A DNA stretch of 33,439 nucleotides from Kiritimatiellia bacterium (GTDB lineage: Bacteria > Verrucomicrobiota > Kiritimatiellia > RFP12 > UBA1067). The notes under the pieces are model-generated. The model saw only the letters and a list, made by a program, of their open reading frames with translations, was not told the origin of the DNA and searched no databases. Positions 7,470-33,001 of this stretch are shown here, one piece after another. Numbering within the stretch: position 1 is the stretch's first letter; every line of letters starts with the position of its first letter. The position numbers and the translations under genes were made by a program. Location of the stretch: the NCBI GenBank assembly GCA_017432385.1, contig JAFRJH010000202.1, positions 1-33,439 of the forward strand, read 5' to 3'.

Positions 7470-7514
7470 GGCTGTATGCCCTCTGTTTGTTCCCGCGAGT
7501 CCGTTTGCGGTTAA

Positions 7515-7560: not shown

Positions 7561-7590
7561 GTTCTGTGACTGGCACGCGTATGGTAAAAT
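7545..7590 (+). promoter_or_regulatory. Divergent promoter P3 for GH92, sharing the same operator; probably leaderless
   Basis: GTAGGG-G-TTCTGT (7562-7567), 17 nt, TAAAAT (7585-7590) preceded by TGn; ATG at 7597 with no Shine-Dalgarno. Confidence 0.7.
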
Positions 7591-7596
7591 GAAGTC

Positions 7597-13657: not shown

Positions 13658-13662
13658 CCCGT

Positions 13663-16600
13663 TCACTCCACTACGATCCGATAGAAGCAGCTCGTCTCAT
13701 CCACCGCCTTGGGAACCTCAAGCACCAGCGCCCCGTCCGCCGCCGCGAGCTCGTCAAGGTAGACGACCGGAGCATCATCGAGACCGGCGAGCGTCGCCGA
13801 CTTCTTGTAGCCATACCTTCGCCCCGAAGCGGCGTTGCCGATTGTTATCGACACCTTGCCGGCCCCTACAACGATCGGGTGTTCAACCCCTTCTCCGCCG
13901 ATTACCGGCGCCTCGGGTTCGGGCGTCTGGCCGCCCGTTCCGTCGTCCGGGAGCCCCGTCAGCTTCAGCGCGCAGATGCAACTGACGGTCGTGGCGGTCA
14001 CCGTTATGCCGAAGGCGGTCTTCGACGTCGAGGCGCCTCCGTCAGAGACGAGATAAACGGCACGCGACCCGTCGCTCAGCTTCGGACCAAGCGCAATCCC
14101 CTCGTACACGATCAGCTCGTACGGGCCGAACACGCTGCTTGGGCTCGACCCCGTGAACTCCAGAAAGCACTCCCCCTTGCCCACCGCCGAGAACGTCGCG
14201 TTCGTCAGCGCCGGGACGGCAGACACCTCGGTTGCCGCGGCAAATGCGCCCGTCGTAAGGCGGTAGATGCGGCAACGGCCGCACGTCGTCGTGCTGACTT
14301 CGCGTTCAAGGGCGAGGAGCGAACCGTCGGGGAGCGCGCAGAGCCCCGAGAGCCCGCTCTGCGCGGAAGTCGTACCGGCGCAGGAATCGCAGGTGTACGC
14401 CCACTCGCCCGCCGCCGTCCAGGCGTCCTGCGCCGCCGCGCGCACGAAGCGCGTCAGACGAACGACGGTGGCGACGTTCGTGTTGCCGCTCGACGACTCG
14501 CCGTCGCATGTAAGCGCCTGCTCGTTGGCGGTCCACATGGCGAGTCCGTCGGGGGAGATCGTCAACGCCTCGAGCGAAAGGTTGGAGCGGACCTTGTCGC
14601 GCTGGACCGATGGAACCGGCGCCGTGCGGCCAGTCGCGGAACCATCAAGGGCGAACTCGGAGATGGACGGCGGCGTCCATTCGGAGCTCACCCACAATGT
14701 GCCGGAGAGCGGATCACGCGCAAGCCCCTCGGCGTCGCGAAGTCCCCCTGGCGCAACCGCCGCGCCAAGCTCATGGCTCTCGATTGCGCCTGTCGCCGTA
14801 TTGATGCCAAGCGTCAACGGATAGATCTTCGAATCTCCGCCGTTGTCGTCATGGTCCTGCAAAACGTAGAACAAGCCGCCCTCGCCAGAATAAGCGATGC
14901 CGCCGCAGCCGTTTGCCCCGAAGGGATATTCCGCGATCTTCGCGAGAGACAGCATGTTGGTGGTGTCCGGTCCGGGGACGATCGGCTCGACAGGACCAGG
15001 CTCGTCGCCACCTGAACCGCCTCCAGAGCTCTCGCCAAGGTCGCGCACCTGGATGGCGGCGACGTAGCGCGCGGCGCCCGATCCGCCCATCTTGAACGTG
15101 ACGACGTGCGATGCGGCTTCCGCCGTGAACGAACCATAGACCGTCGCGCCGGACGAGCCGTTCCCGTTCTGGATGCTGACGGCTGGGAGATCTCCGATCG
15201 TAATGGATGGGTTGCCGAACGAGTTACGCGCCAGTATCTGCAGGAGATACGCGTGACCCGTCGTCAATCCCGAAAGCGTCAAATGGATTTCGCCCATCCC
15301 GGTGTCCACGCCGAAGTTCCAGGCCGTGCCAAGAAGCGAACTACTACCGGCATTCTCGTCCGCATTATTGAATGTCGGATTGAACGAGATGTTCGCGGAC
15401 GAAAGATCGGCACCTGCCTGAAACGTAACGCCGCCCAGAGTCCGCTCCGTCGAAGCGCCGCGATATGCATAGAGAAGCGTGCCGTCGGTCCTGAGCATCG
15501 TCTCGTCCGACGCAGGCAATGCCGCAACGGTCCAGGGGATCTGCGGCACTGGGCCGGGCTCGTCTCCGCCACCGCCGCCGCTGGTCGCCTGTACGACAGG
15601 ATAGTCGGCGTCGGCGAACGTCTTGTCGCCCGAGAGTGTGAAGACAACCGGGTTGCCGCTCAAGATCTCGTAGCCATCGGCCGCGGCAAAATTAACAGTT
15701 ACCTGCGTATTCGAGACAATCGTGTAGCTGCCCGCAACAGCCGCGACCGCGACGCCGTTCGTCGTCACCGACTGAAGAACAATCCCCGTCTTCGCGGGGA
15801 TTGTCAGCGAACATGTCGGCACAGGATCGGGATCGACGGGACCGGGCTCACCTCCGCCGCCCGATTCTCCGTCGGGGAGCTCGCGGACCTGTATGCCGTT
15901 GAGGGGGATTTTGCCGTCGACGTTGGAGAACGTAACCGTAACTTCCTTCGTGTTCCCCATGGCCGTGAAGGTCCCGGTAATGAGCGCGCCATACTTCCCG
16001 CTCGCCTCGTTCTCGCCATGGATATGCACTGGACTGCATCCGTTCACCGAAACGGTCATCTTGTTGTTCCAGTAGTTGTGCGAGAGGAACTGCACGAGAT
16101 AGTTTTTCCCGCCCGCGAGGCCTGAAAGCGTCAGCTTGAACGTGCGCACGCTCGAGCCGTTGTTGTTCCAGTACCAGCCGTTGCTAAGCATGACTCCAAA
16201 GTCGCCGCCGACTTCTTCGTTCATAAGTTCGCTGGTGAAGCTGTCGATGTTTGGCGCAAAGGCAACCTCCAAGGAACTGCCCTGGAGATTTACGTCACGC
16301 TCGAATTTGATTCCGTTGACCGTTCCGCCGTGGCTGGAATAGGCATAGAGAAGCGTGCCATCGGTACGGAAGGAACTGCCGGATGCATCCATCGGAGCCG
16401 AGGTCCAGACGTCGGAGGCAGCGGACGTGTTGACGTAGAAGACGACGGACTTCGTCTTCGTCCGCCCCTTGTCCGTAGTCATCGTCACCTCGCAGGTGTG
16501 GTTGCCGTCCGCAAGACCTTCAAGCGTGAACGAGCTGTCCGTCGTCTGGTCGGTTAGCGCCGTCACGGCGGAGGATGCGCCGTCGAGCTTGTAGGCGACG

Positions 16601-17529
16601 GAATACTTGGTCGCGGGGACCGAATTGGCGTCCGTGCCCAAGACCACGCCCGCGAGCGAGATCGTCGCGTTCGAACCGCTCGGCGCCGCGGTGAGCTCCG
16701 TGATGCGCGGATACTTCGGACGGTTGTTCGTCGCGCGGTTCTGCGCGAACAGCCAGACGAAGCGGTGGTTCGGCGCGCCCGCCGTGACGTCGTCGGTCCG
16801 GGAATAGCACGTCGTCCAGGCGTCGTGGGTGTTGTTCTCGAGCTTCTCGAAGATCACGTCCGACCCGAGCGCCCTGAGCGCCGTGACGATGCCCTCGGTC
16901 TGCTCGCATGGAATGGTCGGGTCGCCGCGGTTGTGGACGGCCAGGACCGGGACGTGCGCGATGTCGGCCGCGCAGGCGGGATCGCCGCCGCCGCAGCACG
17001 GCATCGCCGCGGCGAAGAAGTCGGGACGGCGGCAGATCGCGTCCCAGGTCCCGTGCCCGCCCATGGAGAGTCCGGTGACGTAGATGCGGTTGGCGTCGAC
17101 ATCCGCCATCGCGGCATAGGAGTCGAGGAGATCGAAAACAGCCACGAGAGCCGAGGACGGCTTGTCCACGAACGTGCAGGTTGTAGAATTCATGGAGAAA
17201 TCCGCCCACTTGACGTCGTTCGGACACTGCGGGACGAGAAGCTTGTAGCCGCTGGGAGCGCCCGCACCGTCGAGATAGCTCTTGATGTTCGTCATCTCGT
17301 TGATCGTGAACGAATTGTCGACGCCGCACTGACCGTATCCGTGAAGGAAGACGACTACCGGAACCTTGCCGCCATTCGGATCGGCCTTCGCCGCGACGCG
17401 GTAGGGAAGCTGCAGCTTGTTGGACGCAATGAACGTCTGTTTGACGAATTCGCCTTCGGCAGCAGCTGCGCCCATGTATCCGAGCGCAACGGAAACCGCC
17501 AGAACGAGACTCTTCTTGACCTTATTCAT
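13663..17529 (-). CDS. Secreted mosaic: alpha/beta-hydrolase esterase, Ig/FN3-like module F, module A, module B, module A, esterase-like-phytase beta-propeller, C-terminal domain
   Basis: Start ATG 17529 (MNKVKKSLVLAV, RBS GGAG). VFLHGYG, RIYVTGLSMGGHGTW (GxSxG), HNRGDPTIP, HDAW (complete triad). Phytase-like DAEGL, NLSLEALT, LLALERE, YEGIALGPKLSDG..LVSDG. Ends CFYRIVVE. Confidence 0.85.
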   Translation of the reverse strand: MNKVKKSLVLAVSVALGYMGAAAAEGEFVKQTFIASNKLQLPYRVAAKADPNGGKVPVVVFLHGYGQCGVDNSFTINEMTNIKSYLDGAGAPSGYKLLVPQCPNDVKWADFSMNSTTCTFVDKPSSALVAVFDLLDSYAAMADVDANRIYVTGLSMGGHGTWDAICRRPDFFAAAMPCCGGGDPACAADIAHVPVLAVHNRGDPTIPCEQTEGIVTALRALGSDVIFEKLENNTHDAWTTCYSRTDDVTAGAPNHRFVWLFAQNRATNNRPKYPRITELTAAPSGSNATISLAGVVLGTDANSVPATKYSVAYKLDGASSAVTALTDQTTDSSFTLEGLADGNHTCEVTMTTDKGRTKTKSVVFYVNTSAASDVWTSAPMDASGSSFRTDGTLLYAYSSHGGTVNGIKFERDVNLQGSSLEVAFAPNIDSFTSELMNEEVGGDFGVMLSNGWYWNNNGSSVRTFKLTLSGLAGGKNYLVQFLSHNYWNNKMTVSVNGCSPVHIHGENEASGKYGALITGTFTAMGNTKEVTVTFSNVDGKIPLNGIQVRELPDGESGGGGEPGPVDPDPVPTCSLTIPAKTGIVLQSVTTNGVAVAAVAGSYTIVSNTQVTVNFAAADGYEILSGNPVVFTLSGDKTFADADYPVVQATSGGGGGDEPGPVPQIPWTVAALPASDETMLRTDGTLLYAYRGASTERTLGGVTFQAGADLSSANISFNPTFNNADENAGSSSLLGTAWNFGVDTGMGEIHLTLSGLTTGHAYLLQILARNSFGNPSITIGDLPAVSIQNGNGSSGATVYGSFTAEAASHVVTFKMGGSGAARYVAAIQVRDLGESSGGGSGGDEPGPVEPIVPGPDTTNMLSLAKIAEYPFGANGCGGIAYSGEGGLFYVLQDHDDNGGDSKIYPLTLGINTATGAIESHELGAAVAPGGLRDAEGLARDPLSGTLWVSSEWTPPSISEFALDGSATGRTAPVPSVQRDKVRSNLSLEALTISPDGLAMWTANEQALTCDGESSSGNTNVATVVRLTRFVRAAAQDAWTAAGEWAYTCDSCAGTTSAQSGLSGLCALPDGSLLALEREVSTTTCGRCRIYRLTTGAFAAATEVSAVPALTNATFSAVGKGECFLEFTGSSPSSVFGPYELIVYEGIALGPKLSDGSRAVYLVSDGGASTSKTAFGITVTATTVSCICALKLTGLPDDGTGGQTPEPEAPVIGGEGVEHPIVVGAGKVSITIGNAASGRRYGYKKSATLAGLDDAPVVYLDELAAADGALVLEVPKAVDETSCFYRIVVE

Positions 17530-17560
17530 GGGCACTCCACAGGTTTGTGTTTACGCCCAC

Positions 17561-17606
17561 ATTATAAGCCAAACCACGCCCCTCCGCAATCCCTACAAAA
17601 GTAGGG
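17561..17606 (-). promoter_or_regulatory. Palindromic operator plus promoter P4
   Basis: CCCTAC-AAAA-GTAGGG at 17591-17606; TTGCGG (17589-17584), 17 nt, TATAAT (17566-17561). Confidence 0.85.
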
Positions 17607-17621
17607 GTGCCGACCTCGCCG

Positions 17622-20600
17622 CTATTCCACCACGATCTGGTAGAAGCAGCTCGGCTCGTTCGCGGCCTTCGGAATCTCGAGCGTCAGGATACCGTCTGCC
17701 GCAGCGGGATTCGCGAAGTACACGACCGTCGCATCCTTGAGGCCGGCGAGCGTCGTCGACTTCCTGTAGCCATAGGTGTGCCCTGACGCGGCGTTGCTGA
17801 TCGTGATCGACACCTTGTCGGATCCGACTACGATCGGACTTGCAACCCCTTCCCCGCCGATCACGGGCGCATCGGGTGCCGCGGCCTCGACAAAGACCGC
17901 CGTCCAGTCGTCCGTCGAATCCGCAAGCGGCGTCTCGTTGTCGAAGCGCGTCGCCTGGAGGGCGTAGCCGCCTTCGTCCGTCCGCGCATCGCACAACCCG
18001 AAGGTCAACTCGCCGAGCTGCACGACGGCACCCGTCTTGTCGATGATCTTGATGGCGATGCTACCGTTCGTGATCTTGGTCCATCCGACGTTCGCATAGT
18101 CTGCCTGGTCGAGGCGGAGGGATCCGTAGGCCGAAAGATCAACGTCGCCGAGGACAATTTTGCACTTGGGCACACTGCCTGCCTTGCCGCAGGAGATTTC
18201 GACGCCTTCGAGATTAACTGCGCTTGCGGAGACGTTCGTGATGACGATGAACTCGCCAAGGTCGCCGCCTCCGTTGAGCGTTGATCCGTAGATCGTGTGG
18301 AAGCGGAGATTCGCCTGGTCGGAATCGCCGATGTCGGGCTCCGTCGTAAGGACCTGCGTCGTGCCGTCGGGCGCGAAGATCTGCAGGACGGCCGTGTCGG
18401 AGAATGTCGCGTTGCCGACGATCACCTGGTCCGTGAGCGCATCCGAGTGTGCGGCTACGTAGGCGCGACGATCCGCTACGACGTAGATCGCGTCCTGTGC
18501 GTCGCAGACGGTGCCGGCGGGAAGCGTCCACTCGACCGCAGTCTTGAGCGTCCATCCGCTCATGTCGACGACCTCGTTGTTCCCGTTGGAAATCACGACC
18601 ACGCCGTCGGCGAGCCCCGAGAGGTCGACCGTGATGTTCGGCGCAAGCGTCTCAATCGGGCTCTGCGCCTCGGGGATGCCGGCGTTGAGGCGCGAGCCGT
18701 AGCCGACCGCCTTCGCCGTGTTCGTCACGGAGTGCGTCACATAGAGGTGCTCGCGGCGCGGAACGACGTAGTTGTTCCAGATGTCGTCGACACCGGCGGA
18801 GATCGTGGCGGGGCGCGACGAAGACGGCCAGACGTCGATGGCCTGCGCGGAGGAGTCGATCGGCCACTTCGCCGAATCGGCTGCGGCGTCAGCCGACATG
18901 AGCGCGACCATCTCGCGCATCTTCGCCATGACGGGCGTGTCCGACTCGGCAGTGCCGGGCTCCTTGAGCTCCTGGTCCATCAGCGTCCTGAGGCGGCGCA
19001 GGAACAGGCGGCGGAACTTCGTGGACTGGAGGACCGACTCGATGCCGTAGTTACTGTAGTCCCTTCCGGCCGCAGCGGCCATCGTGGTCGTCATAGCCGA
19101 GGAGGTGTAGCACTGGATGCGGTGTCCGCCATAGAGCGGATGCGACTTGAACCAGTCGTCCGTCGAAGAGATGCCGTTCTGCCCGAGCCCGGCGTCCCTG
19201 TAGAACTGCCCGAAGGTCTCGTTGAAGTCGTAGCCGAGTGGCATCCAGGTGCCGGTGCCGCGCGCCCCCTCCTTCATCTCCGGGTTATCGTAGTAGACGC
19301 AGATGTTGGCCCACACGTCGTCCATCTCCTGCGTGATGCGCGCGGAGGCGAGGTAGTTGAGCCACGCCGGAAGGTCGAACTTCTGGACGACGAACTTCGT
19401 GAGCGGGGCGTTGTCGAGTCCAGTCGGATCGGTCTCTTCGGAGGAGAGCGCCGCCGCCGTGGATCCGCTGACGTTCTGCACGCCGAGCTCGTAGATGGGC
19501 CCGCGCAGCTCGTTCTGGAGGACGGTGATGTTGGACTCGTCCTCGTCATCCGGCGTCTTCTTCTCGATGTCGCCCGCAAGGGTTCCGGAGCCGCTCTTCA
19601 TCGTGCCGACGTTCTTGTAGCCGTAGCCGTACTTGTCTAGCCCGTACACGTCCTCGATCAGCTCGTCGGTGAAGCGCTCGGTGTTGAACGCGAGCTGGTA
19701 GAACTGCCCGTTGAGGTTGCAGCGCACCGGGAAGTGGAACGGCGCGTTGTTGCCCATCCTGCGCCAGAGCCAGAACGCCATCATCTGGCGCAGCTTGCTC
19801 GGGTCGGCGTACTCGCTCGTGAGCGAGGTCTTGCGGATGCCGTCGATCGTCTCGCCCGTGACGACGTCGGTCATCGTGAGAGGGTGCGCCTTGGCGAACC
19901 TGAGGCCGTGGCTCTTCTTGGTGAAGTTTGCCGATGTGTTTCCGCGCAGGTCGATGCGGACGTAGTCGTAGTAGTTGGACGTGGAGGCGTCGTAGATCGC
20001 GACGCGTGCGCCGTTCGCCAGCGTGTAGTGCTGCTTGTCGTCCTTGTCGTAGTCCATCTGCGCCACGGACTGCGGGTCCGCGAACATGTGCCAGGTCGGG
20101 AGATGCTCGCTCACGAGGTCCGCGCCTGGCTCGATGATCGTGCCGTACCATTCGTAGCCGTCGTCCTTGTTGTTGAAGCTCGGGCTCGTCCATTCCACGC
20201 CCTCTCCGTCAGTGACAAGCACCTTCCACTGCCTCAGGTGCCCCGCCGCGGGGAAGTAGGACGCGGGAATCGTCGCCGTGTAGCGCGCGCCCCAGTTCTT
20301 GTCGCTCGCGTCGAGAGTCGACATGTCGACGGCGTTCGTGACGAGCGTCGCGTCGTCGAGGTCCTTGCGGTAGACGAACTTGATGGACGCGATCGCGTCG
20401 GCCGCGCGCGGCGCGGACGAGCCGTCGGGGTTCATCACGGGGTTGATCGGCAGCACGACGGCGTAGTCGGTCCCAGGAACGGCCGGCGGCACAGGGGCGG
20501 CGAACTCGCTTGCAAGGTCCGTCTTCTTTTTGTCCGCCTTCTCGTAGACCGGGCCCACGTTCGGGCCGATGCGCCTAAGTCCCGTCGTGTCGGAATTCGC

Positions 20601-23600
20601 CGTGCCGCGCGTCGGCGTCGGGCACATCCAGCGGCGCGTGCCCTCCCCTTCCGCCGCGTCGCCGACGATGATGGACCATCCTTCCGGGAGGTCGCTCGGC
20701 ACGACGACCGTGTCGACGACGTTCGAAATCTCGCCGCCCGGCGCGTAGTAGAGCCTCACGAACGGCGACTTCTTCGGGTTCACCTTGTCGCCCCACACGA
20801 GCACGCCCCTGAGGCTGTCCCCCATGACCATGGGCTTGCCGTCGAACGTGCCGTGCTCGAACGCGCTCACCGACCTGTCCTTGCTGTTCGAATAGCGCTC
20901 GGACGTGTAGAACACGGCGTGTCCATGCGGCTTGACGAGGAACCTCGGGAAGTTCCCCGCGCCGGCGGTGTCAGTCTTCTTGCCGCGATTCACGCGGATG
21001 AAGCGGTAGTCCGCGAGGTCGGCCCACTTGTCGGACGTGTTCTCGACCTCGACCCAGCCGGACTCGAGTCCGTTGACATCCATCCCCTCGAGTGCGCCGC
21101 GGTCAAGCGCGTCCGTCGGCTTTGGCATCACCTCGCTGATCCTGAGCATGCAGCTCGTGGCAATGTCCGCAGGGTCGACCTCCGGAGCCTCCTCCGGCAG
21201 CTCACGCACCTGGATGGCGCTCAACACGGTATAGACCGAGGAGACGAGCGAGAAAGTCTCCGTATCGCCGCCGGCAACAAACACGCCGACGAGCGAGCCG
21301 CCGTTCTCCCAGCCTTCGCCGTTCGCCCTCGCCGTGACGTCGCCCGGAGCCGTGAAGCGCGCACCCGCCGCAAACGAATCCTGCATGTTGAGTATCAGCT
21401 GCACGAGATACGTCTTCCCAGTCGAAAGCCCCTTCAGCGTCAGCGTCCGAGCGCCGGTCGAAGACGAAACCCAGCGGTGTCCGATCAGGTTCTGATACGG
21501 ATCAGCTGAATCCGAATTCATGTCGCGGTACATGTCGACGTCAAAGGAGAAGTTGACGTTGTTGTAGACCTCGCTCAGATTCTTATCCCCAAGTCCGGCG
21601 AACGGAACGGCGTTGACCGTGCCGGTACGGCGGGCGTACGCGTAGACGAGCGCGCCCGTTGTGCAGATCGTGTCTCCGCTCGCACTCATCGGCGTCGCCG
21701 TCCAACCGAGGCCCACCGGCGGAACCACGGGGTCATCCCCGCCGCCGCTCGTCGTCTGCACGACGGGATAGTCGGCGTCTGCGAACGTCTTCGCGCCAGA
21801 GACCGTGAAGACGACGGGATTGCCGCTTACAATCTCGTAGCCCGAGGCGGCGGAAAACGTAACCGTGACCTGCGTGTTCGACACGATCGAGTAGCTTCCG
21901 CCGACAGCTGCGACCGCAACGCCGTTCGTCGTCACCGACTGGAGCTGAAGCCCCGTCTTCTCTGGAATCGTCAGCATGCACACAGGCGTCGTCGGGTCGA
22001 CAGGATCGATCGGATCTTCGCCACCGCCGCCGCCACCTTCGCCGAGGTCGCGAACTTGGATTGCGTTAAGCGGCCTCATTCCAGACGACGCTGCGGAATA
22101 CGTGACGGTGAAGCTCGCCGTCGCGTCCGTGGCCGTGAATACGCCAACGATGGATCCGCCGTAGTTGTAGTTCACGCCGTCGTGCGTTCCGTGGATGTGC
22201 ACGGGCGTCGAGCCGTTGACCGAGACGAGCGTGCTGTTGGATGTCCTGTGAGAAACAAGCTGGACGAGATAGGTCCTGCCAGTTGTCAGCCCCTTTAGCG
22301 TAAGGGAGAACGAGAGCTCGCCGGACGCGGCGCCATTGTAACCCCAGTACCAGCCGCCCTCGAGCATGTGCCCGAAGTCGCCAGACACGCCCGCGTTCTG
22401 GAAGTCGCTGTTTACGCTCCCCGTGGGGGTGGGCGAAGCAGAAACCATAGCGGCACTGGTGAAATCAGAGGCCTTCGTGAAGGTCACGCCCCCAACCGTT
22501 CCGCCGCTGAACGAATAGGCATAGAGGAGCGTGCCGTCCGTGCGGATCGTGCTGCCGTCCGAAGCCATCGGCCCAGCGGTCCATCCGGCTTGCGGCGTCG
22601 GCCCTGGCTCCCCGCCACCGCCACCACCTTGGCTTGATGTCGCAATCGCGAAGGAGACGGACTTGGTCGCCGTCTTGTTCTTGTCGGTCGTGATCGTAAC
22701 AGTGCAGGTGTAGCTGCCGTCGGCGAGACCCGCAATCTGGAACGAGGCGGAAGCGCCGCTCTGGTTCGAAAGCGCCGTCACGGCGGAGGCGCCATTGAGC
22801 GAATAGGCAATAGAATAAGAGGACGCCGTAGCGCCCTCGTCATCCGTCCCCATCTCGATGTTGGAAAGCGAAATCGTCGCCGTGTCGTCGCTCGTGGTCG
22901 CCGAGGCCGTCCCGATCGACGGAGCGACGACCGTCGCCCCGCCGCCTTCGCCGCCACCGCCTTCGCCGCCACCGCCTTCACCGCCCGAGCCGCTACCTTC
23001 GCCGAGCTCGCGAAGCTGGATGGCCTTGACGAGGCATTTGCTGCCGGTGGTGGCGAACGTGACGGTCACGGTCTCCTGCGCGCCCGTCGCCTCGAACACG
23101 CGCGTGATGACGGCGCCGCACTTGTAGTCGTTCTGCTTGGTTGCCTCCAGCGGAGAGAGGTCGCCGGCGGAGATCGTGGTCGAGGAATTGTTCCAGTGGT
23201 TGGCGGCGAGAATCTGGACCAGGTACTTCTTCCCGGCCGTGAGCCCCTGGAGGGTGAAGGCAAGGTCCAGCGAGGAGTCGCTCTTCTCCCACACCCAGCC
23301 GCCGTTGAACACCGGGTTGTTCTCCGTCCAGCCCGCGCCGGTGTACGACGAGGGCGAGATCGTCGCCTGGTCCGAGCCCGGGAAGCCCGCGGAGAACGAG
23401 ACGCCGTTGACGGTGTGACCGGTGTAGCCGCGCGCGAAGACCTGCGTGCCGTCGCTGCGGAACGCCGAACCCGTCGCGTCCATCGGCGCGACCTTCCAGC
23501 CGACGGCGTCGGCCTGGGAGTCGACGAGGAACTTGACGCGCTTGACGGCGGATTTTACGATGCCGTCCGACGAAACCCAGACCGCGCAAGTGTGCCAGCC

Positions 23601-25295
23601 ATCGCCAAGGCCATTGAACTGAACCGAAGCCGACGAGCCGGTCTCCGTCGTGGAAAGCGCCACCTCGGCGCTTGCGTCGAGCTTGTAGGAGACCGTGAAG
23701 GACGATGCGGCCGCGCCGCTGGCGTCCGTGCCCTTCGCCACGCCGGAAAGCGCAATCGTCGCGTTCGTGCCGCTCACCTGCGCGGCGGCGGAGCCGATCG
23801 TCGGAAGCGCGACGGACGATGCGCCGGCCGTCGCCATGACGGACGAAATCGCGGGCGCGAGGATCTCCTCGTAGGCCTTGGTGGTCAGGTGGAGGAACTG
23901 GTCGGGATAGTCGCCGTTGCCCTGGAGGTACATCTCGCCCTTGTAGGTCCCGTCGGCGTTCATGAACTGGCTGCGCACGTCGACGAGGATGACGCGCTGT
24001 CCGTCGGCGAAGGTGCGGATGATCTCGTTCGCCGCCTGGTTGTTGGCGTAGTGCGCAGCGCCCTTCGCGCTGTTCTGCGCGTTCGTGTAGCCGTAGGGGA
24101 TGATCGGCATCAGGAGGACCTTCGACTCGGGATGCTTCTCGAGAACGAGGTCGAGCACCGCCCGCACGCCCGCGGCGATGTCAGCGGGATCCTCGCTCGG
24201 GTTCTTCCCGATGGTGTTGTTCGTGCCGATCAGCAGGTTGAAGAACTTCGTCGTGTAGCCGTCGATGCAGCCGCTCTTGAGGCGCCACAGCAGGTTCTCC
24301 ACGAAGTCTCCGGTCCGGCCGAGGTTCAGGACGTTGCCGCCTAGTCCGTTCATGGACGTGGCGCTATTCCCCTCCATCCACTTCTGCGTGAGGGAGTCGC
24401 CGAGGAGGACGATGTCGCAGCTTCTGCCGTTTTCGCCGATGAGCTTCACGTCGTCCTCGAACTTCCGCCAGAAGGCGTCCTGCAGGTCGGCGTTGGTCGC
24501 CGTCGGGAACGTCGTAATGCGGTCGATCTCGGGGCGCGCCGTCGCAACGAGGTCGGCGGGCATCGCGGAGCCGCTCGCCGCGGCGTTTACGTACGGCGAG
24601 ACCGCCTGGGCCCAGACTTCGTAGCCGGACGCGTTCAACGTGGCGCGGTCGGCGTTGAAGAGCGAGGTCTTCAGCGTGTGGTGGTCGGACTCGAGGAAGA
24701 GGTCCGACATGTCGACCCAGCTGCAGCCCTTCTTCTGAGCGTACGCGCGGACGTCGATGTTGAGGCGGTCGTTGCGCGGACGCAGCGGATCGGACTCGTC
24801 GAGCCCGCGGGGAAGCACCGCCTGCACGATGATCTTGGACGTGCCGAAATTCGTCAAGAGATAGTCGATGATCGCGCGGACGGCAAGGTAGGTCTTGCCC
24901 TCGGGCTCCTCTTTTTCGGTGTAGATCGCGGAGTTGTTGCCGCCGACCATGAGGAAGATAGCCTTGGGGCTGCCGAGCTCGCCGTTCTGGATGCGCCAGA
25001 GGACGTTCTCCGTGCAGTCGCCGTTGAAGCCAAGGTTGAACATCGCCTTGTCGCCGGCGAAGTGCGAGGCGAGCGAAGAAGCGCCCGTCGTCTCCCAGCC
25101 CTGCGTCAGCTCGTCGCCGATGAAGACGATGTCCTTCTTGACGGAGCTGTCCGAGAGCGCCGCGACCTTCTCGGCGTGGCGCGCCGTCCACCATGTGTCG
25201 AGGCGCGCGGCGGGCGTATTCGCGCGGAAGGCGGCGAAGGCGTTCAGTACGCCAAAGGCAACCAACAGAAAGAGGCTGTGCTTGATCGTATTCAT
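17622..25295 (-). CDS. 2557-aa secreted mosaic: two SGNH/GDSL domains, modules F-A-F-A-B-A, lamin-tail domain, CotH-kinase-like domain, further LTD-like domains, C-terminal domain
   Basis: Signal peptide and RBS GGAG. SGNH1 FIGDELTQGW/NLGFNGD/GGNN; SGNH2 LLGDSLT/GTNN/DQFLH. LTD LRISEVMP...WVEVENTS...DLADY. CotH RIDLRGNTS..TKKSH, NGQFYQL, WMPLGYDFNETFG. Ends CFYQIVVE. Confidence 0.85.
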   Translation of the reverse strand: MNTIKHSLFLLVAFGVLNAFAAFRANTPAARLDTWWTARHAEKVAALSDSSVKKDIVFIGDELTQGWETTGASSLASHFAGDKAMFNLGFNGDCTENVLWRIQNGELGSPKAIFLMVGGNNSAIYTEKEEPEGKTYLAVRAIIDYLLTNFGTSKIIVQAVLPRGLDESDPLRPRNDRLNIDVRAYAQKKGCSWVDMSDLFLESDHHTLKTSLFNADRATLNASGYEVWAQAVSPYVNAAASGSAMPADLVATARPEIDRITTFPTATNADLQDAFWRKFEDDVKLIGENGRSCDIVLLGDSLTQKWMEGNSATSMNGLGGNVLNLGRTGDFVENLLWRLKSGCIDGYTTKFFNLLIGTNNTIGKNPSEDPADIAAGVRAVLDLVLEKHPESKVLLMPIIPYGYTNAQNSAKGAAHYANNQAANEIIRTFADGQRVILVDVRSQFMNADGTYKGEMYLQGNGDYPDQFLHLTTKAYEEILAPAISSVMATAGASSVALPTIGSAAAQVSGTNATIALSGVAKGTDASGAAASSFTVSYKLDASAEVALSTTETGSSASVQFNGLGDGWHTCAVWVSSDGIVKSAVKRVKFLVDSQADAVGWKVAPMDATGSAFRSDGTQVFARGYTGHTVNGVSFSAGFPGSDQATISPSSYTGAGWTENNPVFNGGWVWEKSDSSLDLAFTLQGLTAGKKYLVQILAANHWNNSSTTISAGDLSPLEATKQNDYKCGAVITRVFEATGAQETVTVTFATTGSKCLVKAIQLRELGEGSGSGGEGGGGEGGGGEGGGATVVAPSIGTASATTSDDTATISLSNIEMGTDDEGATASSYSIAYSLNGASAVTALSNQSGASASFQIAGLADGSYTCTVTITTDKNKTATKSVSFAIATSSQGGGGGGEPGPTPQAGWTAGPMASDGSTIRTDGTLLYAYSFSGGTVGGVTFTKASDFTSAAMVSASPTPTGSVNSDFQNAGVSGDFGHMLEGGWYWGYNGAASGELSFSLTLKGLTTGRTYLVQLVSHRTSNSTLVSVNGSTPVHIHGTHDGVNYNYGGSIVGVFTATDATASFTVTYSAASSGMRPLNAIQVRDLGEGGGGGGEDPIDPVDPTTPVCMLTIPEKTGLQLQSVTTNGVAVAAVGGSYSIVSNTQVTVTFSAASGYEIVSGNPVVFTVSGAKTFADADYPVVQTTSGGGDDPVVPPVGLGWTATPMSASGDTICTTGALVYAYARRTGTVNAVPFAGLGDKNLSEVYNNVNFSFDVDMYRDMNSDSADPYQNLIGHRWVSSSTGARTLTLKGLSTGKTYLVQLILNMQDSFAAGARFTAPGDVTARANGEGWENGGSLVGVFVAGGDTETFSLVSSVYTVLSAIQVRELPEEAPEVDPADIATSCMLRISEVMPKPTDALDRGALEGMDVNGLESGWVEVENTSDKWADLADYRFIRVNRGKKTDTAGAGNFPRFLVKPHGHAVFYTSERYSNSKDRSVSAFEHGTFDGKPMVMGDSLRGVLVWGDKVNPKKSPFVRLYYAPGGEISNVVDTVVVPSDLPEGWSIIVGDAAEGEGTRRWMCPTPTRGTANSDTTGLRRIGPNVGPVYEKADKKKTDLASEFAAPVPPAVPGTDYAVVLPINPVMNPDGSSAPRAADAIASIKFVYRKDLDDATLVTNAVDMSTLDASDKNWGARYTATIPASYFPAAGHLRQWKVLVTDGEGVEWTSPSFNNKDDGYEWYGTIIEPGADLVSEHLPTWHMFADPQSVAQMDYDKDDKQHYTLANGARVAIYDASTSNYYDYVRIDLRGNTSANFTKKSHGLRFAKAHPLTMTDVVTGETIDGIRKTSLTSEYADPSKLRQMMAFWLWRRMGNNAPFHFPVRCNLNGQFYQLAFNTERFTDELIEDVYGLDKYGYGYKNVGTMKSGSGTLAGDIEKKTPDDEDESNITVLQNELRGPIYELGVQNVSGSTAAALSSEETDPTGLDNAPLTKFVVQKFDLPAWLNYLASARITQEMDDVWANICVYYDNPEMKEGARGTGTWMPLGYDFNETFGQFYRDAGLGQNGISSTDDWFKSHPLYGGHRIQCYTSSAMTTTMAAAAGRDYSNYGIESVLQSTKFRRLFLRRLRTLMDQELKEPGTAESDTPVMAKMREMVALMSADAAADSAKWPIDSSAQAIDVWPSSSRPATISAGVDDIWNNYVVPRREHLYVTHSVTNTAKAVGYGSRLNAGIPEAQSPIETLAPNITVDLSGLADGVVVISNGNNEVVDMSGWTLKTAVEWTLPAGTVCDAQDAIYVVADRRAYVAAHSDALTDQVIVGNATFSDTAVLQIFAPDGTTQVLTTEPDIGDSDQANLRFHTIYGSTLNGGGDLGEFIVITNVSASAVNLEGVEISCGKAGSVPKCKIVLGDVDLSAYGSLRLDQADYANVGWTKITNGSIAIKIIDKTGAVVQLGELTFGLCDARTDEGGYALQATRFDNETPLADSTDDWTAVFVEAAAPDAPVIGGEGVASPIVVGSDKVSITISNAASGHTYGYRKSTTLAGLKDATVVYFANPAAADGILTLEIPKAANEPSCFYQIVVE
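22942..22986. repeat. 15-bp tandem repeat x3 encoding a GGEGG linker
   Basis: ccgccttcgccgcca ccgccttcgccgcca ccgccttcaccgccc. Confidence 0.8.
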
Positions 25296-25327
25296 GAGGA
25301 CTCCACTGAGTTTCAGTTTGCGTCCCC

Positions 25328-25373
25328 ATTATATGGCAAAAGCCATCCTGCCGCAATCCCTACGAACGTAGGG
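25328..25373 (-). promoter_or_regulatory. Palindromic operator plus promoter P5
   Basis: CCCTAC-GAAC-GTAGGG at 25358-25373; TTGCGG (25356-25351), 17 nt, TATAAT (25333-25328). Confidence 0.85.
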
Positions 25374-25390
25374 GGCGAGCCTGCACATGA

Positions 25391-28219: not shown

Positions 28220-28224
28220 ACCCC

Positions 28225-31200
28225 TCACTCCACAACGACCTGGTAGAAGCAGCTCGGCTCGCCCGCCACTTTCGGTATCTCAAGCGTCAGTACGCCGTCG
28301 GCTTCGGCAGGATCGTCGAAATAGACCACCTCGGCGTCCTTGAGGCCGGCAAGCGTCGTCGACTTCCTGTAGCCGTAGGTGTGTCCCGCTGCGGCGTTGC
28401 TGATCGTAATGGCGACCTTGTCGGACAACACCGCAAACGGCACATCAACCCCCTCCCCGCCGATCACCGGCGCATCGGGCTCCACGGGAGCGCCCGCCGG
28501 CAGCTCCCGCACCTGGATGGCGTTGAGCGCACGCCATCCGGCGGGGCCGGAATACTTGACCGCAATGTCCTCCGTCGTGCCCGTCGCATCGAAGACACCG
28601 ACAAGCGAGGCGCCGTACTTGTTGGTGTCGCGCATGGCCATCGGCTCGAGATCACCGGCGCTGATCAGCGCATCGCTCCACTTGTTGTGCGCGAGGACCT
28701 GAACGAGATAGCGCTTTCCGGCCGTCAGCCCCTTGAGCGTGATCGTCAGCGTGCTTGTTGTGTTGGCCCACTTCCACGAGTTCTTCAGCATCGTGCCGAA
28801 GTCTCCGGTCACGCTCTCGCTGCCCGAGCTGCCGTCCGTCTGCGCCAGATCCGGCGAAACCGCCGTGTAGGTCGTATTCAGGTCGGCGTCCGCGGCGAAG
28901 GCAATTCCGTTGACCGTCACCGACTGGACGGCGTAGGCGTAGAGAAGCGTCCCGTCCGTACGGAAAACGGTCCCTTCCGCATCCGCAGCCCCGCCGGTCC
29001 AGCCAGTCTCGACGGAACCGCCGCCGCCACCGCTCGTCGCCTGCACGGTCGGATAGTCGCCGTCGGCGAACGTCTTGTCGCCCGAGAGCGCGAAGACGAC
29101 CGGGTTGCCGCCCGTGATCTCGTAGCCCGAGGCCGCGACAAACGTCACCGTGACCTGCGTGTTCGAAACGATCGAGTAGCTGCCCGCAACCGCCGCCACC
29201 GCGACGCCGTTTGTCGCAACGGAATCAAGGACAAGTCCCGCCTTTCCGGGAATCGTCAGCGTGCAGACGGGCGTCGCCGGATCGACAGGATCGACCGGAT
29301 TCTCGCCACCGCCACCACCCTCGCCGAGATCGCGCACCTGGACGGCGTTGACCGGCCGGTCGCCGTTCGAGCCGGAAAAGAGGATCTCTACATCCTGCGT
29401 CTCGGCCGAAGCAGTGAAGGTGCCAGTCATAAGAGCCCCGTACTTGCCGCTGGCTTCGTCGGAGCCGTAGACATGCTGCGATTCGCAGCCATTGGCGGAG
29501 ACCAGCATGCTGCCGCTCCAGTGCGTGTGCGAGAGGATCTGCACCAGATACCGTTCCCCCGGCGTCAGGTTCTTCAGCGTCAGCGTCACCGCCTTGGTGT
29601 CCGTCGACGAATCCGTCCACGTCCAGCCATTGCCGAGGATGAGTCCGTAGCCACTATCCGAAACTCCCTCGTTCATCAGGCCGCCGTCGAAGCCGGTAGC
29701 CTCCGGCGTGAAGGCGATTTTGTGGGAGGAATCAAGAGGCAGAGCCCGCGTGAACGAGACGCCGTTGACGGTCTGTCCCTGCGCCGCATAGGCGTAGACC
29801 AGCGTGCCCTCCGTGCTGAACTTCGCGCCGGCGGCGTCCATCGGTTCGGACGTCCAGCCGACCGGCGTCGGCGGCGGCTCGCCAATCCTGAAGTTGACGG
29901 ACTTCGCCGCGGACGTCTTGTTCGCGTCGGTCATGATCGTCACCGCGCAGGAATAGACCCCGTCGGCGAGATCGGCGATGTCGAACGTAGCCGTCGAGGC
30001 GGTTTGGCCCTCGAGCGCGGCCACGTCAGGCGCATTGGTCAGCGAGTAGAAAACCGAATAGGAGGTCGCCGAAACGCCTCCGTTGTCGGTTCCCATCTCG
30101 ATGCCCGAAAGCGAGATCGTCGCCGTCGTGCCGTTCGTCGAGACGGAAACCGACCCGATCGACGGCGCGACAACCGGCGCCGGCGGCGTGCCGATCCGGA
30201 AGGAGACGGACTTCGCCGCGGAGGTCTTGTTCTTGTCTGTCGTGATCGTCACCGCGCACGTGTATTCGCCGTCCGCGAGACCGGAGATCGTGAACTGCGC
30301 GGACGCACCGGTCTGGCCCGTAAGCGCGGCTACGGACGCCGCGTTGTTGAGCGAGTAGGAGACGGAATAGGAATTTGCGCTCTCACCGGCATCGTCCGTC
30401 CCCAGCACGATGCCCGAGAGAAAAACCGTCGCCGCCGTTTCGTTCGTCGTGACGGTGACCGAGCCGACCTTGGGCTGGACTACGATCGGCACGCCGCTCT
30501 CGCCGAGGTCGCGCACCTGGATGGCGTTGATGCCGTAGTTTCCGTCGGACGTGATCGTGAACGTCTTGGTGGACTCAGTTGCCGTAAAGGTCCCCGTCAG
30601 CGCGCCGCCGCAGGACCAGCCGTCGCCGTAGACCTTGATGAAATTCGGATCCCAATACGACTCCTTGATCCAAACATGGGCCTTGCTGTCACTGTTGTAG
30701 TTGCGATAGCCGAATATCTGAACGAGGTAGCTACGTCCAGCCGTGAGGTTCTTGAGCGTCACCGCCTTGTCGCCCTGGTTCGCCCACCAGCAGCGGTTCA
30801 GGAGGTCGTAGTAAGCGCCAGAGATGCTGCTCGGAGCCGACGCGCCGGAGGTCTGGTTGTACGGCCAGGAAATGTCGCCCGAGATGTTCGCGTTGTTGTT
30901 CCCGGCAGCCGCGAACGTAACGCCATTGACCGTGCAGGCCGAGGGCGCATACGCATACTTGAGTGTGCCGTCCGTGCGAATGGCGCTTTCGTCGGTCGGC
31001 AGCGGGCTCGCGTACCACGGCTCGGTCATCGTGAAGTCGAGCAGCGTCACGAGCTCCTTGTTGTCCGCCGTCGTGACGGTCACCTTGCAGGTATGGTCGC
31101 CGAGGGCGACATTCGGGATCACGAACGACTTCCTAACGCCCGTCTGGTTGGAAAGCGCACGTGTCTTCGCGCCGCCGTCGAGCTCGTAGTCAATCGCGTA

Positions 31201-32151
31201 GGACGTCACGGCGTTCGCGTTCGCGTCCGTTCCGAGGTTGATGCCGAAGACCGTGATCGTCGCGGAGCCCGCGCCGTCCGCGTTCGGAGCGGCCTTGGCG
31301 TAGCCGAGCGAGGGATCCGCCACGTGCGCCTGGCCGGCGGGAACCGAGAGATACTTGTGCATCGCGTTGGTCAGCGCAGGCTTCCAGAAATCCGAATAGG
31401 TGAAGAATTCCGGATGGAGGCAGAGTCCCACGGCGTCGTAGCCGCCGTGGCCGCCCTCGCGGTAGCAGACCTTGTCGGGCATCGAATTCTGCTGGAGGTA
31501 CTGGCTGCGGAGGTCCACCCAGAACACGCGCTTATTGTCGACGAACTGGAGGATGTAGTCGTTGACCGCCTCGCTCATGGCCGTCACTTCGGCCGCTTCG
31601 AAGTACCTGCTGTCGAAGCTGTAGGGGAGGATCGGCATCAGGAGGATCTTCGCGTCCGGATGCTTCGTCGCCATCTCGCAGAGCATGAGCCGGATCGACT
31701 CGGCGACATCCTCGGCGCGATCGGCGTGCTCGTTGTGGTCGATGCACTTCTGGTGGCCGTTGTTGATGCCGATCATGAGGGTCATGTACTTGGTGGTGTA
31801 CCCCTCGAGGGCGCGGTCTCTGAGACGCCACAGGATGTTCTGGACGCGGTCGCTGCCGATGCCCATGTTGAACGTCTTCGTGTTGTTGGGGTTCCCGTCG
31901 AGGCTCAGGTTCGGATTGCTGTTCCAGAAGTCGGTGATCGAGTCGCCGAACAGGACGATGTCGAAATCCTGGCCCTGGCTCTTCTCGATGTCTTCCTTGT
32001 AGTGGTTCTTGTGGTAGTCGTCCGTGCGCTCCTTCGGCGTGCACGGCTCCGAACTGTGGTCGGATCCCGGCACCTGGGTGCCTATTGTATCTCCGACGGA
32101 AACCAGCGTCAGGGCCGCGGCCAACACGGAGAGTACTGCTTTGATTTTCAT
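28225..32151 (-). CDS. Secreted mosaic: SGNH/GDSL esterase, modules F-A-F-F-A-B-A, C-terminal domain
   Basis: Start ATG 32151 (MKIKAVLSVLAAALTLV, RBS GAGG; 32169 is an alternative). LFGDSITDFW, NMGIGSD, MIGINN, LCLHP. Ends CFYQVVVE. Confidence 0.85.
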   Translation of the reverse strand: MKIKAVLSVLAAALTLVSVGDTIGTQVPGSDHSSEPCTPKERTDDYHKNHYKEDIEKSQGQDFDIVLFGDSITDFWNSNPNLSLDGNPNNTKTFNMGIGSDRVQNILWRLRDRALEGYTTKYMTLMIGINNGHQKCIDHNEHADRAEDVAESIRLMLCEMATKHPDAKILLMPILPYSFDSRYFEAAEVTAMSEAVNDYILQFVDNKRVFWVDLRSQYLQQNSMPDKVCYREGGHGGYDAVGLCLHPEFFTYSDFWKPALTNAMHKYLSVPAGQAHVADPSLGYAKAAPNADGAGSATITVFGINLGTDANANAVTSYAIDYELDGGAKTRALSNQTGVRKSFVIPNVALGDHTCKVTVTTADNKELVTLLDFTMTEPWYASPLPTDESAIRTDGTLKYAYAPSACTVNGVTFAAAGNNNANISGDISWPYNQTSGASAPSSISGAYYDLLNRCWWANQGDKAVTLKNLTAGRSYLVQIFGYRNYNSDSKAHVWIKESYWDPNFIKVYGDGWSCGGALTGTFTATESTKTFTITSDGNYGINAIQVRDLGESGVPIVVQPKVGSVTVTTNETAATVFLSGIVLGTDDAGESANSYSVSYSLNNAASVAALTGQTGASAQFTISGLADGEYTCAVTITTDKNKTSAAKSVSFRIGTPPAPVVAPSIGSVSVSTNGTTATISLSGIEMGTDNGGVSATSYSVFYSLTNAPDVAALEGQTASTATFDIADLADGVYSCAVTIMTDANKTSAAKSVNFRIGEPPPTPVGWTSEPMDAAGAKFSTEGTLVYAYAAQGQTVNGVSFTRALPLDSSHKIAFTPEATGFDGGLMNEGVSDSGYGLILGNGWTWTDSSTDTKAVTLTLKNLTPGERYLVQILSHTHWSGSMLVSANGCESQHVYGSDEASGKYGALMTGTFTASAETQDVEILFSGSNGDRPVNAVQVRDLGEGGGGGENPVDPVDPATPVCTLTIPGKAGLVLDSVATNGVAVAAVAGSYSIVSNTQVTVTFVAASGYEITGGNPVVFALSGDKTFADGDYPTVQATSGGGGGSVETGWTGGAADAEGTVFRTDGTLLYAYAVQSVTVNGIAFAADADLNTTYTAVSPDLAQTDGSSGSESVTGDFGTMLKNSWKWANTTSTLTITLKGLTAGKRYLVQVLAHNKWSDALISAGDLEPMAMRDTNKYGASLVGVFDATGTTEDIAVKYSGPAGWRALNAIQVRELPAGAPVEPDAPVIGGEGVDVPFAVLSDKVAITISNAAAGHTYGYRKSTTLAGLKDAEVVYFDDPAEADGVLTLEIPKVAGEPSCFYQVVVE

Positions 32152-32180
32152 GACATGCCTCGCTTTCATTTTACGATGAA

Positions 32181-32226
32181 ATTATAGGCGAAAATTCACA
32201 ACCTCGCAATCCCTACAAATGTAGGT
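32181..32226 (-). promoter_or_regulatory. Palindromic operator plus promoter P6
   Basis: CCCTAC-AAAT-GTAGGT at 32211-32226; TTGCGA (32209-32204), 17 nt, TATAAT (32186-32181). Confidence 0.85.
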
Positions 32227-32231
32227 GGCGT

Positions 32232-32870
32232 CTAGTTGACGATAATAACCCCGCCGCTGGTCCCTGGTGCGTTCTCGGCCAGCTCCCGCACCTGGATGGC
32301 GTTGATCAAAGCCTGCCCGCTGTACGAGATCACGAACTCCTCCGTCGCGGCATCGGCTGTGAACTCGGCGGACAGCGAGCCGCCGTATTCCCAGCCGGTT
32401 CCGCCGTAGTGAATAACGGCAACCCCATCCGGAGCCGTTGCGGTCTGCGTAGTGTAATCATTGCGGAACGCAATCATCTGGACGAGATACTTTTTCCCAA
32501 CCTCAAGATTATTTAGTTGTATCTTCCGGCCTTTGGCAGACGCCCACCAGGGATGCTCAAGCATATCCTTATAGCCTCCGCTTTCTGTATCACCAGGCGC
32601 AGTAGCACCGGAAGTTCCGGCTCCTCCGGAAGCCTCCCAAACGACACAGTTCTCGGTATTGATGATTTTGTCCCCGACTCCGACAAACTCAACGCCGTTG
32701 GCCGTGTAGTTTCCGCGCGCGTAGGCGTACTTGAGCGTGCCATCGGTGCGGATCGACGTACTGCTTGCGGTGAGCGGCGTACCCGTCCATGTAACGTTGA
32801 ACGCGGCGCCCGCGGCGAGAGCCGACATCGCAACGAGAGCCGCACATGCGAACGACGCGACTGATTTCAT
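32232..32870 (-). CDS. Small secreted protein made of a single module A plus a short C-terminal tail (GTSGGVIIVN)
   Basis: Start ATG 32870 (MKSVASFACAALVAMSALAAG, RBS AAGGAG). TWTGTPL...IRTDGTLKYAY...YLVQ...NAIQVREL aligns with the eight modules in the large proteins. Confidence 0.85.
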   Translation of the reverse strand: MKSVASFACAALVAMSALAAGAAFNVTWTGTPLTASSTSIRTDGTLKYAYARGNYTANGVEFVGVGDKIINTENCVVWEASGGAGTSGATAPGDTESGGYKDMLEHPWWASAKGRKIQLNNLEVGKKYLVQMIAFRNDYTTQTATAPDGVAVIHYGGTGWEYGGSLSAEFTADAATEEFVISYSGQALINAIQVRELAENAPGTSGGVIIVN

Positions 32871-32938
32871 GACGATGATGCTCCTTTCCTTGTGGGCAGT
32901 GCGGATGCATTGCCACCTTCTGCACGACTTGCGACACA

Positions 32939-32984
32939 ATTATAGACGAAGCCAGGGACCATGGCAATCCCTACAAAAGGAGGG
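32939..32984 (-). promoter_or_regulatory. Palindromic operator plus promoter P7
   Basis: CCCTAC-AAAA-GGAGGG at 32969-32984; TTGCCA (32967-32962), 17 nt, TATAAT (32944-32939). Confidence 0.82.
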
Positions 32985-33001
32985 GGCGTCCGCCCCGGAA
33001 G

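Follow-up and report, generated by a model that had tools for sequence, protein, structure and literature searches.

A candidate malectin-like glycan-binding module repeated on predicted secreted esterases of a Kiritimatiellia bacterium

INTRODUCTION

Carbohydrate-binding modules (CBMs) of the type B/C jelly-roll families (CBM22, CBM6, CBM35, CBM61, and CBM4) are non-catalytic beta-sandwich modules found on glycan-active enzymes. Malectin/CBM57 domains (PF11721), of ~170 amino acids, are likewise appended to carbohydrate-active enzymes, for instance at the C-termini of Bacteroidota beta-glucuronidases (GUS) of glycoside hydrolase (GH) family GH2. The plant CrRLK1L receptor kinases (FERONIA, ANXUR1/2; PF12819) carry malectin-like domains in tandem, and AGA-YXIM_GBD (PF21254), the N-terminal galactose-binding-like domain of Bacillus subtilis YxiM (2O14), is a jelly roll joined to an SGNH esterase. 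Reports of new CBM families with known folds appear regularly. Kiritimatiellae are common, uncultured glycan degraders of ruminant guts, and little is known of how they attach to their substrates. Here, we analyzed contig JAFRJH010000202.1 of a Kiritimatiellia bacterium (assembly GCA_017432385.1), the whole of which (33.4 kb, ~65% G+C) is called the window below, and in which an earlier note, made from the letters alone, had pointed to a repeated module as a candidate binding module. We consider it probable that this module binds glycans without being catalytic itself, and that it combines a malectin-like fold with a sequence family of its own. Its multi-specific arrays would keep secreted O-acetyl-type esterases attached to an esterified glycan, and it would also occur as a free lectin and on module-only surface proteins.

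RESULTS

Nine copies of one module in four proteins

A scan with the motif pair RTDGTLxYAY ... NAIQVR[ED]L gave 2, 3, 3, and 1 occurrences in the proteins P0001, P0002, P0004, and a small standalone protein, respectively. Together with the envelopes of a hidden Markov model (HMM), it delimited nine units of ~175 amino acids (170-185) between 15034 and 32801, all on the minus strand, which bears out the 2+3+3+1 arrangement that the earlier note had placed at 15037..32789. A six-frame search of the whole genome (2.74 Mb, 355 contigs, 83% complete) returned all nine on this contig, with E values of 1e-55 to 1e-77, and none elsewhere in the genome. The E values below are from that search.

15874..16419, minus strand, module P0001-1, amino acids 373-554, E 9.5e-78
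15034..15543, minus strand, module P0001-2, amino acids 665-834, E 2.6e-55
22998..23510, minus strand, module P0002-1, amino acids 596-766, E 1.9e-61
22041..22595, minus strand, module P0002-2, amino acids 901-1085, E 7.5e-71
21195..21716, minus strand, module P0002-3, amino acids 1194-1367, E 2.8e-62
30502..31029, minus strand, module P0004-1, amino acids 381-556, E 1.4e-65
29323..29868, minus strand, module P0004-2, amino acids 768-949, E 1.4e-73
28498..29013, minus strand, module P0004-3, amino acids 1053-1224, E 4.3e-68
32277..32801, minus strand, module of the standalone protein, E 1.3e-60, the copy modeled with AlphaFold

All 36 pairs of copies were significant in BLASTP (E 7e-63 to 5.8e-9), with 26-49% identity over 172-188 amino acids, and the other eight copies were 27-38% identical to the standalone one. 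The nine-way alignment contained 18 invariant columns (W5, G21, A26, T33, F39, W85, L96, L99, G102, Y105, L106, Q108, G140, F147, A149, Q170, R172, and L174) separated by variable stretches.

The module had also been described as an autonomous unit, which the standalone gene supports:

32232..32870, minus strand, standalone gene, 212 amino acids from the ATG at 32870; signal peptide, one module, and a 14-amino-acid tail

This ATG is preceded by a ribosome-binding site, AGGAAAGGAG. The database form of the protein (P0006) is 100% identical, has 212 amino acids, and begins at an internal ATG. The standalone protein had 72 matching proteins, down to ~48% identity, and 64 of them are 195-225 amino acids long.

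For every copy in the window, positional orthologues were found among other representative proteins; they share 51-94% identity with it, as compared with 26-49% between the copies themselves. Moreover, 38 non-redundant orthologues of the standalone protein (57-85% identical) keep many of the residues of the "variable" loops at 80% or more. These values fit the notion that the window copies are old paralogues, separately maintained, whose loops would have distinct selected functions. The earlier proposal that variable loops give different specificities is, to that extent, consistent with both comparisons, neither of which amounts to proof of sugar binding.

A predicted malectin-like jelly roll

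The standalone copy was modeled by AlphaFold2, with an input alignment that combined the nine copies with 23 standalone relatives. The best model had a predicted local distance difference test score (pLDDT) of 93.7 and a predicted template-modeling score (pTM) of 0.91, all five models reached a pLDDT of at least 92.0, and the chain formed 15 beta-strands and one short helix. Foldseek returned weak matches only (E 7e-5 to 3e-3, TM-score at most 0.54), to CBM6, CBM4, CBM22, ANXUR ectodomains, and a Bacteroides uniformis glucuronidase. An exhaustive structural search of 48,161 chains, independent of Foldseek, gave malectin/CBM57-type domains in four of its five best rows. The first was the C-terminal domain of B. 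uniformis GUS-2 (Z 12.1, root-mean-square deviation [rmsd] 3.0, 139 amino acids), followed by Tannerella GUS (Z 10.2), FERONIA (Z 10.2), Bacteroides dorei GUS (Z 9.6), and B. subtilis YxiM (Z 9.6), while Xenopus malectin came at rank 10 (Z 7.9). On re-alignment of the top 999 Foldseek chains, ranks 1-14 were all occupied by glucuronidase C-terminal domains, ANXUR/FERONIA malectin-like domains, or human malectin, with Z 9.6-12.1 (6d50, Z 12.1; 5y92, Z 11.3; human malectin 9ikp, Z 10.8, rmsd 3.0, 143 amino acids). YxiM (Z 9.6) and a pectate-lyase CBM came next, and CBM22, CBM61, and CBM35 were found at Z 7-8, a range common for unrelated sandwiches. The C-terminal domains of 5UJ6 and 6ED1 are named CBM57 or malectin-like in a 2026 preprint. 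Among language-model neighbors with a family name, AGA-YXIM_GBD (0.86) and Malectin (0.83 and 0.82) came up, as leads only. Thus, the predicted fold of the module is a malectin-like beta jelly roll. This agrees with the beta-sandwich of carbohydrate-binding type expected earlier, the nearest structures being malectin/CBM57 and other CBMs. The malectin type, which ranks first, was one of the folds named beforehand, next to galactose-binding and cohesin folds.

The likeness to described domains can be stated family by family. With Malectin/CBM57 (glucuronidase C-terminal domains 5UJ6/6D50, 6ED1, and 8DHL; animal malectin 2K46 and 9IKP), the model shares Z values of 9.6-12.1 and rmsd of 3.0-3.3 over 139-144 of 175 residues, a similar length, attachment to enzymes, and a collinear order of motifs; yet there is no significant sequence relation, and the module has its own conserved set, including NGVxF and NAxQxR. 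The CrRLK1L ectodomains resemble the model in fold (Z 10.2-11.3, rmsd 2.6-3.4 over 137-150 residues) and are also in tandem. They are, however, eukaryotic receptor ectodomains packed as a fixed pair, whereas the modules belong to secreted enzymes of a bacterium, have flexible linkers between one copy and the next, and show no sequence match to them. AGA-YXIM_GBD offers the precedent of an SGNH esterase partner and is the closest of the named language-model clusters; its structure aligns with Z 9.6 and rmsd 2.7, but over fewer residues (125). The type B/C jelly-roll CBMs belong to the same structural class and play the same non-catalytic part, but match clearly less well than the malectin group (Foldseek E 1e-4 to 3e-3, Z 6.2-8.0), and without any sequence match. 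Since the malectin type is the nearest predicted shape, the module probably represents a new family within a familiar class of sugar-binding domains.

A sequence family of its own

Scans against Pfam and NCBIfam named the flanking domains of the module proteins and did not match the modules. When the nine copies, and then 32 members, were each scanned at E ≤ 10, the sole recurring match was a weak, partial one to FN3 (PF00041), in 3 of 9 copies and 11 of 32 members, with best E values of 0.008-0.023. We rejected FN3 as the identity of the module: that domain has ~85 amino acids and matches only a stretch of ~25-45 residues around "L.gLt.G..Y.v", whereas the module has 175 amino acids and 15 predicted strands. 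Module profiles run against all PDB sequences found no CBM and shared only 25-45 residues (query 80-133) with FN3 domains of titin and fibronectin. None of the eight clusters looked up for the standalone protein bears a functional name. AGA-YXIM_GBD had no match among the 32 members and was found in 0 of 61 genomes of the order, the present one included. The earlier statement that the module fits no named Pfam family therefore stands, and no strong full-length match to a characterized family was found among Pfam, NCBIfam, and PDB sequences. Nor did we find a description of the module in the literature searched, subscription journals and CAZy being outside its scope.

The family beyond this genome was delineated by running the nine-copy profile against 1.84 billion proteins. 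It matched 2107 representatives at E ≤ 1e-3, 596 at E ≤ 1e-10, and 124 at E ≤ 1e-30; the 596 include some fibronectin-type false matches, low-ranking FN3-repeat proteins being matched at positions ~80-130 only. Only 10 of 221 matched proteins examined lacked any full-length module, and members carry 1-14 full copies. From 407 extracted copies, 308 non-redundant ones were retained. They keep W5, G21, A26, N-G-V-x-F (35-39), L99, G102, Y105, Q108, G143, F150, A152, and N-A-x-Q-x-R (173-178), with positions ~40-72 and ~110-140 unconstrained. Of 40 relatives, 2 had the module, namely 1 of 24 from the genus and 1 of 16 from the rest of the order, and among 300 other genomes sampled across the phylum 15 had it (E ≤ 1e-8). 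Its copies tend to cluster where present (9 and 11 copies). A single-protein query of a species-genome collection found one related locus, in an uncultured genome from the rumen. The family is real but sparse and patchy.

Domain company of the modules

The interval 13663-32939 is occupied by five long minus-strand genes, namely P0001, P0002, P0003, P0004, and the small standalone gene. Module numbers below are those of the motif scan and HMM envelopes, and the domain orders that follow are from the translations and Pfam.

13663..17535, minus strand, P0001, 1290 amino acids, 2 modules
17622..25295, minus strand, P0002, 2557 amino acids, 3 modules
28225..32169, minus strand, P0004, 1314 amino acids, 3 modules
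Between the module genes, minus strand, P0003, a GH2 beta-galactosidase without modules

Signal-peptide-like N-termini and Gly/Pro-rich linkers can be read directly from the translations of the module proteins. P0001 has, in order, a signal peptide, an alpha/beta-hydrolase esterase (DLH/Abhydrolase_2, amino acids 51-242, resembling the esterase of PDB 3doh with E 1.3e-33), an immunoglobulin (Ig)-like domain, a module, a 75-amino-acid domain, a second module, a Phytase-like domain (amino acids 876-1165), and a C-terminal domain shared with other proteins of the contig. P0004 consists of a signal peptide, an SGNH/GDSL esterase (Lipase_GDSL_2, amino acids 73-232) that resembles platelet-activating factor (PAF) acetylhydrolase Ib (E 1.7e-7), Ig-like domains, three modules, and the same C-terminal domain. 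In P0002, the signal peptide is followed by two SGNH/GDSL domains, Ig-like domains, three modules, a lamin-tail domain (LTD), CotH, another LTD, and the shared C-terminal domain; Pfam matched Lipase_GDSL_2 in two stretches, CotH at amino acids 1781-2112, and LTD in three stretches. Its SGNH part resembles PAF-acetylhydrolase Ib (E 1e-13) and, more weakly, the sialate O-acetylesterase 6njc (E 9e-8).

Incidentally, the first SGNH domain of P0002 (24618-25124, amino acids 58-226) reads, by eye, GDELT where the second one and that of P0004 read GDSLT/GDSIT. This domain may be non-catalytic, since the nucleophile Ser is replaced by Glu. The CotH kinase-like domain between lamin-tail domains (17622-21190, amino acids ~1370-2557 of P0002) is an unusual fusion partner for glycan esterases.

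Across the family, a Pfam scan of 57 members (E ≤ 1e-5) found GDSL or DLH esterase domains on 7. A GH29 fucosidase, a beta-helix, and Exo_endo_phos occurred on one member each, and others carried CHB_HEX_C, Laminin_G_3, or Listeria-Bacteroides repeats. Genome G040, a relative that belongs to a different family within the order, has 11 modules, on proteins that include GDSL (1529 amino acids) or two GDSL and DLH (1879 amino acids), with a separate Phytase-like gene adjoining the module proteins. Its domain set is that of P0001, P0002, and P0004, joined differently.

Since the best structural neighbors of the module are enzyme-fused domains, one of which belongs to the SGNH esterase YxiM, one might ask whether the module serves to shape or gate the active site of the esterases, as does the N-terminal sandwich of CE2 enzymes or the CBM57 loop of B. 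dorei GUS. Indeed, the preprint mentioned above reports that the latter loop contributes to the active site. However, Ig-like domains and Gly/Pro linkers separate the modules from the esterases, and the modules come two or three per chain, alone, or on proteins without any catalytic Pfam domain. Such an accessory catalytic role is the least probable of the explanations that we weighed.

Many of the members without any other Pfam domain are proteins of three or four modules whose C-terminal part looks like a solenoid and closes with a short hydrophobic tail that has K/R as its last residue. Among distant relatives, P0100, P0104, P0124, P0129, and P0141 have three or four N-terminal modules and hydrophobic C-termini such as GLLLIFK, GLVLLFR, and GFLILLK.

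Members of this build look like cell-surface proteins, and the predicted fold would still be that of a sugar binder if the copies bound the cell's own surface glycan (capsule or lipopolysaccharide). They would then keep the enzymes on the cell, like SLH or cell-wall-binding repeats, and leave substrate recognition to the catalytic domains. Yet nine diverged, separately maintained paralogues fit several ligands better than one self-glycan. Moreover, the patchiness of the module even within the genus, where 1 of 24 other genomes has it, makes a general envelope role unlikely, and there is nothing for a free, secreted protein of one module to anchor. We regard envelope retention as rather unlikely.

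Glycan binding as the favored reading

In the mechanism that we favor, the module would be a non-catalytic, autonomously folding glycan-binding domain with a malectin-like jelly roll, the type of fold known from CBM57 of CAZy. In this rumen bacterium, two or three old, diverged paralogues per chain are arrayed, on Gly/Pro linkers and Ig-like spacers, behind secreted SGNH (O-acetyl-esterase-type) and alpha/beta-hydrolase esterases. Each copy would grip a sugar epitope via its variable loops, and different copies on one chain would provide avidity and breadth. The esterases would thereby be kept on an esterified plant or host glycan, the neighboring glycosidases (GH2, GH20, GH27-like, GH92, and GH127) would then dismantle that glycan, and the secreted one-module protein would act as a free lectin of the same system.

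Several observations weigh against this reading. First, Pfam Malectin (PF11721) matched 0 of 32 members at E ≤ 10. Second, when 308 modules were compared by hhalign with 23 Malectin domains from genomes of the phylum, a shallow Malectin profile, the probability was 3.1% (E 0.014, 144 collinear columns). With only four Malectin sequences, which is too shallow, it was 0.9%. Third, the set of residues conserved family-wide contains no acidic residue and few aromatics outside strands, so that no common ligand or Ca2+ site can be read from it. Fourth, malectin-like domains of plant receptor kinases also bind peptides and proteins, and the fold is therefore no guarantee of a sugar ligand. Last, 26 of the 57 members have no other Pfam domain, which indicates that "appendage of enzymes" is not the whole story.

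The sequence comparison also bears on classification. The Malectin HMM gave 0 matches in the module's own genome, whereas it did match the Bacteroides thetaiotaomicron control and 38 of 200 other genomes from the phylum. Because of this and of the low hhalign probability, we do not file the module in CBM57. In the hhalign alignment, "G..YLVQ" is collinear with "G.Y.V.L", and "NAIQVR" with "SAIEV". The module stands as a distinct sequence family that has a malectin-like fold and is perhaps very remotely related to Malectin.

As a new CBM family the module is a good candidate, although it would not amount to a new principle. A broader proposal, which we advance tentatively and hold to be possible rather than probable, is that it founds a new CBM family as a remote branch of the malectin fold, and that every diverged paralogue recognizes its own epitope on a glycan that is O-acetylated or otherwise esterified. 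With multi-esterase carriers, a free lectin, and a NarL-type switch (see below), the locus would then represent a Kiritimatiellae mode of glycan capture that uses neither SusCD transport nor a cohesin-dockerin scaffold. A catalogued binding module would allow annotation of giant "hypothetical" Kiritimatiellae proteins, indicate what a conserved set of esterases acts on, and bring one more family into the CBM toolbox. Nine natural paralogues in one locus make a compact series on loop changes versus specificity.

The shared C-terminal domain and the question of protein assembly

The three large module proteins end in a domain of 85 amino acids, terminated by CFYQ[IV]VVE, that is also found on a beta-helix protein of the contig. 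Evidence is given in brackets.

13666..13920, minus strand, C-terminal domain of P0001, predicted FN3/Ig-like sandwich (alignment)
17625..17879, minus strand, C-terminal domain of P0002 (alignment and genome search)
28228..28482, minus strand, C-terminal domain of P0004 (alignment and genome search)
5697-5900, C-terminal domain of the beta-helix protein encoded at 5694-7787 (genome search)

These four are the strong copies of the genome, which has one weak match elsewhere, and so small a number argues against a general sorting signal. The domain was modeled, with pLDDT 87.8 (70-72 in the other four models), as a small sandwich of FN3/Ig-like type, and its best structural match, at Z 6.3, is a generic one.

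The earlier note had offered, as an alternative, a cohesin-like module that makes these proteins scaffoldin-like. The copies would then bind the shared C-terminal domain or another protein of the locus and assemble multi-enzyme platforms. Modules are indeed repeated on long proteins that also bear the C-terminal domain, the relative P0142 consists of a signal peptide, one module, and this very domain, and plant receptor-kinase malectin-like domains join protein/peptide complexes (title of PDB 6a5e). However, both partners would sit on the same chains. The C-terminal domain occurs in a module-bearing congener (G013), is absent from G040 with its 11 modules, and has weak copies in module-free genomes. 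This independent occurrence weighs against an obligate pair. Being generic FN3/Ig-like, it is no dockerin, and no dockerin, cohesin, or Sus family of Pfam was matched in the 16 window open reading frames (ORFs) scanned. There was no cohesin among the 50 structural matches listed, which does not exclude the fold itself; both folds are jelly rolls. The predicted complex of the module with the C-terminal domain scored 0.00, a value that speaks for binding as little as against it. None of these results lent support to the cohesin-like alternative, and we deem protein assembly very improbable. As for the companion claim that the system is neither Sus-like nor a dockerin cellulosome, the same 16 ORFs agree with it. 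Glycan binding by the arrays is the reading that we retain.

A shared promoter region with a palindrome

A palindrome, CCCTAC-N4-GTAGGG, lies upstream of all four module genes, inside a 65-nt promoter region that they share:

17543..17607, no strand assigned, 65-nt promoter region upstream of P0001, with palindrome CCCTACAAAAGTAGGG at 17591-17606
25310..25374, no strand assigned, 65-nt promoter region upstream of P0002, palindrome at 25358-25373
32163..32227, no strand assigned, 65-nt promoter region upstream of P0004, palindrome at 32211-32226 (one mismatch)
32921..32985, no strand assigned, 65-nt promoter region upstream of the standalone gene, palindrome at 32969-32984 (one mismatch), TTGCCA-17-TATAAT

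With at most one mismatch allowed, the window holds six sites, as compared with 0.02 expected. The remaining two (4518-4533 and 7545-7560) precede a 920-amino-acid ORF and a GH92 gene. The palindrome abuts the -35 element of at least six promoters on the contig. There are six exact sites in the genome: four in the window and two on another contig, C116 (2629-2644 and 7670-7685), where they flank a HisKA_3 kinase and a NarL-type regulator (Response_reg and GerE). The set looks like one small regulon across two contigs. Since the palindromic operator that the module genes share also flanks a NarL-type two-component system, these genes are probably switched on together. The earlier description of the four proteins as co-regulated is thus plausible: the shared region and palindrome stand upstream of all four genes, and it is this motif that speaks for co-regulation.

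Genomic surroundings and minor observations

Other genes of the contig encode GH127, GH92, a GH27-like alpha-galactosidase with NPCBM, the beta-helix protein, GH2, and a GH20 fragment, and glycosidase genes flank the module locus. Two long minus-strand ORFs in the glycosidase cluster (1681-4443, 920 amino acids; 11759-13666, 635 amino acids) had no Pfam match at E ≤ 0.5.

DNA nearly identical to that of the contig was found in bovine, sheep, and other animal gut metagenomes. Fourteen DNA-type runs contained 31-98% of the sampled words, and one of them is possibly the source. The P0004 gene was overlain by contigs of 79-376 nt, 90-100% alike, from four ruminant-gut RNA libraries belonging to four studies. 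This is no more than a hint that P0004 or close relatives are transcribed, DNA carry-over being possible. Almost no RNA contigs lay on the standalone gene, which proves nothing.

Finally, we noticed that the ~75-amino-acid domain (CxLTIP...GYE[IV]..GNPVVF...) seen between the modules of P0001 is present between modules in all three large proteins (15572-15867, 21739-22034, and 29024-29319). It has no Pfam match, and its DNA is 72-81% identical among them, far closer than that of the modules. This domain may have been recently homogenized or may be strongly constrained.

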